From assembly GCF_044324875.1 (NCBI RefSeq), contig NZ_CP172185.1: 64,000 bases of DNA. One strand, given 5' to 3'. Shown piece after piece: positions 25,217 through 26,135 of this stretch. Within the stretch, counting starts at the first letter, position 1; every line of letters begins with the position of its first letter. Position numbers and translations under genes: made by a program. This DNA comes from Escherichia coli. GTDB lineage: Bacteria; Pseudomonadota; Gammaproteobacteria; Enterobacterales; Enterobacteriaceae. The notes below the pieces were generated by a model. The model was not told the origin of the DNA. It saw nothing but the letters and a program-made list of their open reading frames with translations, and ran no database searches.

Positions 25217-26135
25217 GAATCTTGACCTTTTTTGCTGTTATCGCCACTCCCTGCCGTGGAAGTCAGCTTAGAACAATGTACTCCCCCAGGACGGCGTTTT
25301 GAAGGTCTGCAGAATAAGATTTTGCCAGAGGGGAAGACTCGATTGTGCTGTTAATAACTTAATAATGGCAAAATAATGAGGTGTATATGCTTAGTAATTA
25401 ATGTTATGTAGTGAATTGTTCTGATTCTTAATTGTGAGTGTGGTTTTTTTATCTGTAAGATAATTGTTTGAAAATGCCTCGTTTAAGAATTCACTAATGA
25501 ATCGTGATGATGATATTTCCGCATTACGGAGAGTTTAACAGCGTGATGATTTCCGAGGTGTCGTAATGGGTGCAAGGTGTGAAACTATTGTTAAGCGGGA
25601 TTAATGAATGAGGATGATGCTAATTAATTATTATTTAATATTCAAAAAGGTTTTGTTGTGCTTATTAATAATAGAAGATTACTTTGCCTAACATAACATA
25701 ACTTTGCATCAGATAATTCGCAATGACCCTTATAAATAAAAGGTTTTTGGGGTAAAATGCTCGCATAAATGACGGATCCCTGCTCTTGATGCCGCCTCAC
25801 CATTGCTGTTTGTACGTGTTCGCGTATGACCAGCGATGCTGCACGAGAGTGGAACAAGGACTCACATTTACATTTATACAAACACGCGCATGTCATAAAT
25901 ACAAAAGAGTGAGTAACTTAATAGATATGCGATTCCTGAAGATATATTCTGTGATCTACTTCAGGCATTATAACGGAACAATGTGAGTCGCTTTTTTAGT
26001 GCAACTCATATGCATTTTTACTTTCGTCCGGGTTCCGGATGAAACTGCCAGGGAGGCACATTACAAATGGAATTGCTTGTTTGTGTGTGCACAGCATTAA
26101 CCAGCTCAGTATGAGCCGCCAGTAAGTGATAATAT

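Follow-up and report, generated by a model that had tools for sequence, protein, structure and literature searches.

The divergent genes alaA (23999 to 25216, minus strand) and lrhA (26136 to 27074, plus strand) are separated by a gene-free gap of 919 bp (25217 to 26135) in a 64,000-nucleotide stretch of Escherichia coli DNA (contig NZ_CP172185.1), which we refer to as the window. We found that this gap is a composite regulatory region, which is real and functional and has already been described in the literature. With a probability of about 88%, it is the shared control region of these two core genes and has no gene of its own. The largest gene-free stretch of the window is a documented regulatory region rather than a missed gene or a new RNA. 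LrhA acts near the top of the E. coli choice between motility and fimbriae, capsule, or biofilm, and the spacer is the point at which many of the signals controlling LrhA converge (Lrp, OmpR, CsrA, Hfq, UhpU, ArcZ, and RprA). Association with Hfq, CsrA, Lrp, and OmpR is shown by published genome-wide data. Novelty is low because the control region is already known to be real and functional, but our analysis adds a coordinate-level map of which approximately 40% of the gap is constrained (Table 1).

We propose the following arrangement. The left ~110 bp would hold an alaA promoter, an adjoining Lrp-type site, and a short conserved leader. The middle ~250 bp would be an AT-rich spacer with a sequence free to drift. 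The ~190 bp upstream of the lrhA transcription start site (TSS) would carry conserved transcription factor footprints and a sigma-70 promoter, from which lrhA transcription begins at 25765. The promoter-proximal two-thirds of the lrhA leader is unconstrained in sequence, and its last ~110 nt would be a single-stranded, sequence-conserved landing platform beside a weak Shine-Dalgarno sequence. There, CsrA would be expected at two GGA motifs, of which one is in a hairpin loop, and Hfq-dependent small RNAs (sRNAs) pair and reduce LrhA synthesis. UhpU pairs at positions −28 to −8 relative to the lrhA AUG, the predicted site for RprA and McaS is a CACAGCA block, and the predicted pairing of ArcZ covers the GGA hairpin. 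Because LrhA represses flhDC, less LrhA would mean more motility.

Conservation and constraint across the gap

Over 25217 to 26135, the DNA is 100% identical to that of E. coli strain 1190 (NZ_CP023386.1). In the RefSeq annotation of that strain, the gap is the largest intergenic gap of the window, ahead of those between lrhA and nuoA (629 bp) and between yfbL and elaD (390 bp), as a sequence-only reading of the window had stated. The K-12 counterpart, 2406642 to 2407560, is likewise 919 bp and differs by 26 substitutions and no indels. There is no annotated feature within the gap in K-12 or strain 1190. The same earlier reading called the gap very AT-rich, which our measurements support. Its GC content is 38.2%, compared with 51.7% for the window, and drops to 28.9% in 25578 to 25764. 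A GC content this low occurs in only 158 of 6309 sliding 919-bp windows. It is not the minimum, though, because a 919-bp stretch near 44341 has a GC content of 33.4%. This stretch (approximately 44341 to 45260) falls in the yfbL/elaD region.

The gap is present as one copy in 5425 of 5426 complete E. coli genomes, with at least 95% identity in all but three. In almost all of them it is exactly 919 bp long and has nothing annotated inside. To look beyond E. coli, we collected 80 loci across the Enterobacteriaceae with the LrhA protein as the query. A divergent alaA is upstream of lrhA in 78 of these, with a gap of 764 to 1140 bp (median, 943 bp) and 35 to 44% GC. The divergent arrangement and the gap are thus kept among relatives; conservation was a check that the sequence-only reading had named. 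The single copy and the synteny argue against a horizontally acquired AT-rich island or a repeated mobile element. Two of the genomes in our collections were unusual. A contig titled Chryseobacterium sp. 18061 has an alaA-lrhA locus of the usual enterobacterial type, in which LrhA is 78% identical, and it is probably a contaminated or mislabelled assembly. A genome named E. coli SCPM-O-B-8794 has 95% LrhA identity and 0.68 spacer identity, which is far outside the spread of the 5425 E. coli genomes; judged by these values, it probably represents a cryptic Escherichia lineage.

We aligned 48 gaps, from about 48 Enterobacteriaceae species, with MAFFT. As a rough neutral yardstick we used the identity to E. 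coli at third codon positions of the flanking genes, which was 0.72 to 0.74 in E. albertii and 0.51 to 0.63 in Citrobacter/Salmonella. The conservation profile is a mosaic in which constrained and unconstrained parts can be separated. Conservation is highest in the transcribed 3′ part of the lrhA leader and in the alaA leader. In 25327 to 25577 and in the 5′ ~260 nt of the lrhA leader, it is at or below the third-codon-position proxy. In the comparison with K-12, the 548 bp before the lrhA TSS show 23 substitutions and the 371-nt leader shows 3, compared with 26 in 1218 bp of alaA and 15 in 939 bp of lrhA.

Apart from its promoters, the gap could consist largely of AT-rich DNA covered with H-NS or other nucleoid proteins, forming a silencing or insulating spacer without specific RNA-level signals. 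This would fit the GC content of 29 to 35% across 25327 to 25764, the unconstrained spacer sequence, and the IS1 insertions that occur in the gap (see below). Chromatin immunoprecipitation (ChIP) has also identified lrhA as a direct activated target of Lrp (bioRxiv 10.1101/276808) and detected OmpR binding at the lrhA-alaA spacer (PMC3945435). However, the H-NS flag is blank for lrhA-alaA in a table from an RpoD genomic SELEX (systematic evolution of ligands by exponential enrichment) study that flags H-NS spacers (PMC3946193). Furthermore, conservation peaks in the transcribed 3′ leader and the alaA leader, RNA-level control by UhpU is proven by compensatory mutations, and the region is a vertically inherited part of the core genome rather than a foreign island. 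We consider this explanation improbable. A purely architectural role of nucleoid proteins may describe the 250-bp spacer, but not the conserved transcribed parts. The suggestion in the sequence-only reading that the gap holds nucleoid-protein binding sites is thus partly supported, by the reports on Lrp, for which we also found two consensus-like matches (see below), and on OmpR. For H-NS, the blank flag lends it no support, and our literature search found nothing on Fis at the gap.

The lrhA leader and promoter

Melamed et al. 2023 (eLife, PMC10578931) give a 371-nt lrhA 5′ untranslated region (5′UTR) in K-12. Primer SM079, from the oligonucleotides of the same paper, starts the lrhA fragment of a lacZ fusion at ATAAATGACGGATCC, which is position 25765 of the window, 371 nt before the AUG. 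By this sequence match to a published construct, the lrhA TSS is at 25765. A conserved −10 element, TAARAT, sits 7 nt upstream. Consistent with a long leader, Hfq coimmunoprecipitation recovered "lrhA-alaA" fragments of 150 and 350 nt, which the authors assigned to the lrhA 5′UTR, and a 1.5-kb lrhA transcript was detected with an upstream probe (PMC4152368). A long lrhA leader had been one of the suggestions made from the sequence, and it is the one that these data confirm.

Conservation of the 3′ part of the leader is a matter of primary sequence, because RNAalifold found zero consensus pairs in the last 115 nt of the leader across 35 species. This is as expected for landing sites of proteins or sRNAs. 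A covariation search for a structured RNA, which the sequence-only reading had proposed, therefore gave a negative result over these species, apart from one local hairpin at 26025 to 26041. Its pairing holds in 85.7% of alignment cells over 14 Escherichia, Citrobacter, and Salmonella sequences, and three of five pairs have compensatory double changes. Pairing fell to 22 to 47% in a register-shift control. This is the only local hairpin in the leader with covariation.

The two GGA motifs have the arrangement found in CsrA-bound leaders, with one GGA in a hairpin loop and the second within bridging distance. We recognized the hairpin motif before we found the corresponding entry in a published data set. 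The second GGA (26069 to 26071) lies within the strongly conserved AAAUGGAAUUGC, 18 nt downstream of the GGA in the loop. The supplement of PMC5694010 lists a CsrA peak from cross-linking and immunoprecipitation (CLIP) sequencing, peak_226, in the lrhA 5′UTR (K-12 positions 2406671 to 2406757). The sequence printed there for this peak corresponds to 26020 to 26105 of the window, and both GGA motifs are inside it. A table in that supplement also reports that lrhA ribosome footprints rise ~2-fold in a csrA mutant (log2 change in ribosome-protected fragments, +1.0). These data suggest that CsrA would use the two GGA motifs. No focused study of CsrA and lrhA turned up in our literature search.

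PMC10578931 describes the lrhA leader as a target of UhpU, ArcZ, and RprA, with McaS chimeras in RIL-seq (RNA interaction by ligation and sequencing) data, and reports that UhpU repression of lrhA was proven by compensatory mutations. In the lrhA-M1 gBlock, the C of GCCGCCAGT, which is C26120 of the window, is changed to G, and in UhpU-M1, ACUGG is changed to ACUCG. From these positions, the validated duplex core is formed by leader positions 26117 to 26123 with UhpU ACUGGUG. The site, including C26120, is identical in the window and K-12. Escherichia, most Citrobacter, and Salmonella retain its core CCAGU; elsewhere, the sequence is CCUGU. This distribution broadly agrees with a recent report that the UhpU-lrhA interaction is lineage restricted (PMC12704781).

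For the other sRNAs, RIL-seq chimeras and RprA repression of lrhA are reported in PMC10578931 and PMC5861431. The latter also describes how RprA pulls down lrhA mRNA, as enrichment in MAPS (MS2 affinity purification followed by RNA sequencing), and speeds its decay. McaS did not affect the published lrhA-lacZ reporter. Their exact sites in the leader are predictions. Duplexes of 8 bp with RprA and 12 bp with McaS are predicted at the CACAGCA block, and the ArcZ seed is predicted to pair with 26036 to 26058, overlapping the GGA loop. It is conceivable, if rather doubtful, that the conserved ~110 nt is a competitive hub in which CsrA and ArcZ act on the same AGGGA loop (26046 to 26058) and link carbon and oxygen status to motility, and that a conserved 20-mer on the alaA side or the TGTGA-N6-TGTTA repeat upstream of the lrhA promoter (both described below) is an undescribed regulatory input.

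The 5′ part of the leader gave no evidence of a conserved structured element, as judged by folding z-scores in eight relatives and by its neutral divergence. The whole E. coli leader folds better than shuffled sequences (z = −3.3 and −3.9), and its 5′ 261 nt alone gave a z-score of −1.9. The homologous whole leaders of the eight relatives had z-scores of −1.5 to +1.1. We rejected a leader-wide fold of the riboswitch or thermosensor type, because the z-score is significant in E. coli only and the fold is not common to the relatives. A C-rich, G-poor segment in this part (25776 to 25804) is a candidate Rho entry site.

An independent Hfq-binding sRNA ("ig-lrhA-alaA"), with its own promoter and 3′ end, has also been considered for the gap, and an unannotated small RNA was among the suggestions of the sequence-only reading. 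The 150- and 350-nt bands seen after Hfq coimmunoprecipitation then lay outside an annotated short 5′UTR (PMC4152368), and the whole-leader z-score of −3.3 might also be taken to indicate an RNA gene. However, the authors of that study themselves saw the 1.5-kb transcript and called the fragments lrhA 5′UTR derived. There is no terminator-like site in the gap; the sole site of our scan, 25165 to 25184, is inside the alaA coding sequence. Nothing in Rfam matched above chance. The only match, at a permissive E-value, was to STnc170, an sRNA from near SL1458 in Salmonella, and its 20 bits fell short of the gathering threshold of 80. Together with the lack of a consensus structure over 35 species and of a folding signal in relatives, these observations argue that the Hfq-bound species are leader fragments, and we regard an independent sRNA gene as very unlikely.

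A small protein gene or a regulatory upstream open reading frame (ORF) in the lrhA leader is most unlikely: several ORFs of 30 to 84 amino acids are present (66 amino acids on the plus strand, 84 on the minus strand, and others), a 28-codon ORF starts from an AUG at −97 (26039), a GUG at −97 opens a 15-codon ORF (MKL[P/R]G[R/K]HITNGI...) in most Citrobacter and Salmonella genomes that we examined, and the locus tags of strain 1190 skip CNQ48_RS08340 between CNQ48_RS08335 (alaA) and CNQ48_RS08345 (lrhA), which suggests a gene call that was later withdrawn, but the 66-, 84-, 50-, and 33-amino-acid ORFs have in-frame stops in a divergent Escherichia genome and E. albertii, apparent peptide conservation of a 40- and a 33-amino-acid ORF coincides with conserved DNA or RNA sites and is broken by stops or frame changes, the −97 ORF has variable stops (15 versus 28 codons), lacks a Shine-Dalgarno sequence, and does not occur in several species, and the K-12 gap has no annotated feature. 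The stops in close relatives support the view of the sequence-only reading that such ORFs are compositional.

Upstream of the lrhA TSS, footprints in 25578 to 25764 are conserved across the aligned species. The core promoter contains the near-invariant CTTATAAATA, in which TTATAA (25730 to 25735) is in the −35 position, and a −10 element that is TAAAAT or TAAGAT in many genera, with a T-A-n-n-n-T pattern of conservation. Assignments of transcription factors to the footprints are putative. The TGTGA-N6-TGTTA direct repeat occurs once in the window, where 0.18 matches would be expected by chance, and its distance to the lrhA −35 block is 150 to 154 bp in 36 of 37 species. We take its 11-bp register to resemble that of ArcA boxes. 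The literature search found no report linking ArcA to lrhA. A CRP site at the same position was rejected: its second half-site is a misfit, and an ArcA-type direct repeat fits better, albeit without literature support. Two repeats are also present. Copies of a 24-nt direct repeat (25495 to 25518 and 25602 to 25625) are 79% identical and 107 bp apart. aacataacataac, the short direct repeat that the sequence-only reading had pointed out, is at 25690 to 25702, inside the second unit of a 20-nt tandem repeat, and CATAACATAAC in this region is kept in Escherichia, Citrobacter, and Salmonella only. Tandem Repeats Finder reported nothing.

Other published work agrees that this is a regulatory region. 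RpoD genomic SELEX described the "920 bp-long lrhA-alaA" spacer as a multifactor regulatory region, with RNA polymerase holoenzyme and promoters in both directions (PMC3946193). Tn5 insertions in the spacer cause hypermotility in ST131 (PMC5425062), and transposon insertions oriented toward lrhA cause lrhA overexpression and capsule loss (PMC5654933). Natural IS1 insertions are found in the gap of a few E. coli genomes. One has IS1 in the lrhA leader (25905 to 25913), with a 9-bp overlap that resembles a target duplication, and another has it upstream of the lrhA promoter (25547 to 25559). In a third, with its IS1 junction at 25383, an IS1-bounded deletion has removed the remainder of the gap, lrhA, and all of the nuo operon as far as elaD. 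Such insertions are rare, and a spread sample of 60 genomes had none besides this deletion strain.

The alaA side and the variable spacer

On the alaA side, a putative sigma-70 promoter and TSS were located by phylogenetic footprinting. The −35 and −10 hexamers are kept across the ~48 species, and the spacer between them is variable. Our promoter consensus scan missed this promoter because it matches at 8 of 12 positions and the threshold was 9 of 12. Within the first ~20 nt of the predicted alaA leader is a near-invariant 20-mer (25247 to 25266; mRNA sense, CUGACUUCCACGGCAGGGAG). It is predicted to form a 9-bp 5′-terminal stem-loop, and the overall folding z-score is not significant. We rejected a CsrA site in this leader: its hairpin loop has GGGA, but alaA has no CLIP flag in the supplement of PMC5694010.

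A box resembling the Lrp consensus lies next to the predicted alaA −35 element. This consensus reportedly goes back to Cui in 1995, and alaA is said to be regulated by Lrp, reportedly from work by Kim et al. in 2010. The second Lrp-consensus-like match (25409 to 25423) is in the variable spacer. Elsewhere in the window, a perfect match to the Lrp SELEX consensus is at 45898 to 45912, within an elaD-like gene.

The variable spacer carries most of the substitutions that separate the window from K-12. Six of them are in 7 bp (25393 to 25399; AGTAATT versus TACATGC), which resembles a small replacement more than a set of separate point mutations. A sequence resembling an RcsAB box, TAAGAATTCACTA (25484 to 25496), was rejected as a candidate, with only approximately 9 of 14 positions matching the consensus and a location in the least conserved part of the gap.

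Several observations weigh against the conclusion that the gap is a shared control region, or against parts of it. About 500 bp show no sequence constraint, so most of the gap length is not explained by specific sites. The length itself is uninformative. We considered its conservation as a sign of function and rejected this because the neighboring lrhA-nuoA gap is equally rigid (614 to 634 bp in nearly all of 72 species). An older annotation, mentioned in PMC4152368, had a short lrhA 5′UTR. For alaA, PMC3946193 proposes other hexamers based on SELEX, TTAAGA-17-TATAAC, a pair that falls in a poorly conserved part of the gap. Finally, when duplex energies of ArcZ, RprA, McaS, and UhpU with the leader were scanned, both unrestricted and in windows, the best values did not surpass those obtained with shuffled leaders. 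Therefore, sequence alone does not single out the sRNA sites, and we anchored the UhpU site by the published mutant sequences instead of the energy scan. With these points taken into account, a control region shared by alaA and lrhA is still the reading that we favor at the probability given above. The residual interest is in the CsrA hairpin with its predicted ArcZ overlap, the ArcA-like repeat upstream of the lrhA promoter, and the invariant element at the predicted alaA mRNA 5′ end.

The lrhA-nuoA gap (27075 to 27703, 629 bp) is also AT rich, with a GC fraction of 0.34 to 0.45. A CsrA CLIP peak listed in the supplement of PMC5694010 spans the lrhA 3′ end and the nuoA 5′UTR.

Table 1. Segments and features of the alaA-lrhA gap, in window coordinates, with identity to E. 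coli where it was calculated
Segment or feature	Position	Strand	Description or basis	E. albertii	Citrobacter/Salmonella	Enterobacter group
alaA-proximal segment	25217-25326			0.86	0.84	0.78
Predicted alaA 5′UTR, ~52 nt	25217-25268	−	Conservation; TSS placed from the conserved promoter			
Predicted alaA sigma-70 promoter	25275-25303	−	TTCAAA (25303-25298), 17-nt spacer, TACATT (25280-25275)			
Lrp-consensus-like box CAAAATCTTATTCTG	25310-25324	−	Two mismatches to YAGHAWATTWTDCTR; conserved block; directly upstream of predicted alaA −35			
Variable AT-rich spacer	25327-25577		34.7% GC; between the two promoter regions	0.62	0.42	0.32
lrhA upstream segment	25578-25764			0.81	0.69	0.57
Direct repeat TGTGA-N6-TGTTA	25578-25593	+	11-bp register; conserved in most genera; ArcA-box-like			
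AT-rich blocks ATTAATGAAT and AATTAATTATTATTTAATATT	25601-25643	+	Kept across genera; upstream of lrhA promoter			
Conserved TTAATAATA	25665-25673	+	Kept across genera			
20-nt tandem direct repeat	25669-25708	+	Units 25669-25688 and 25689-25708, 75% identity; −96 to −57 of lrhA TSS			
lrhA core promoter region	25711-25758	+	CAGATAATTCGCAATGA (25711-25727), CTTATAAATA (25729-25738), −10 TAAAAT (25753-25758)			
lrhA 5′UTR, 371 nt	25765-26135	+	Published length and primer match			
Leader 5′ part	25765-26023	+	Fast-evolving; no conserved structure	0.73	0.42	0.31
Leader 3′ part	26024-26135			0.96	0.79	0.54
Hairpin CGUCCGG-GUU-CCGGAUG	26025-26041	+	Covariation			
CsrA-type hairpin UGCC-AGGGA-GGCA	26046-26058	+	GGA in loop and G-C core, both conserved			
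CACAGCA block	26088-26097 (CACAGCA, 26090-26096)	+	Nearly invariant in 35 species; complements UGCUGUG seed of RprA and McaS			
UhpU pairing site	26108-26128 (core CGCCAGU, 26117-26123)	+	Published compensatory mutations; duplex predicted			
Weak Shine-Dalgarno region	26123-26135 (UAAGUGA, 26123-26129)	+	AGTG invariant in 35 species; upstream of lrhA AUG			

Comparison with known regulatory regions

The closest known system is the K-12 lrhA 5′UTR (PMC10578931), which is the same locus. Both have a 371-nt leader, with 3 substitutions between them, and they are identical in the TSS context and at the UhpU site. Including the 23 differences in the upstream 548 bp and the cluster at 25393 to 25399, the window departs from the K-12 locus by strain-level polymorphism only.

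The rpoS, csgD, and flhDC leaders and the 755-bp csgD-csgB spacer offer a broader comparison. As in those systems, the lrhA 5′UTR is long, serves several Hfq-dependent sRNAs as a hub, and lies within a long, AT-rich divergent spacer to which many transcription factors bind. The lrhA-alaA spacer has been grouped with csgD-csgB and nanC-fimB (PMC3946193). However, the lrhA leader is conserved only in its last ~110 nt, and we found no conserved inhibitory structure in it. The rpoS leader, by comparison, relies on a self-inhibitory hairpin.

The lrhA leader also resembles the CsrA-repressed leaders of glgC, cstA, and pgaA. It likewise has an AGGGA loop carried by a short G-C stem, with another conserved GGA 18 nt downstream, and the supplement of PMC5694010 records both a CLIP peak and derepression in a csrA mutant. 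In contrast to the glgC, cstA, and pgaA type, the lrhA GGA motifs are at −86 and −67, and neither overlaps the Shine-Dalgarno sequence. Therefore, direct occlusion of the ribosome-binding site by CsrA is unlikely at lrhA.

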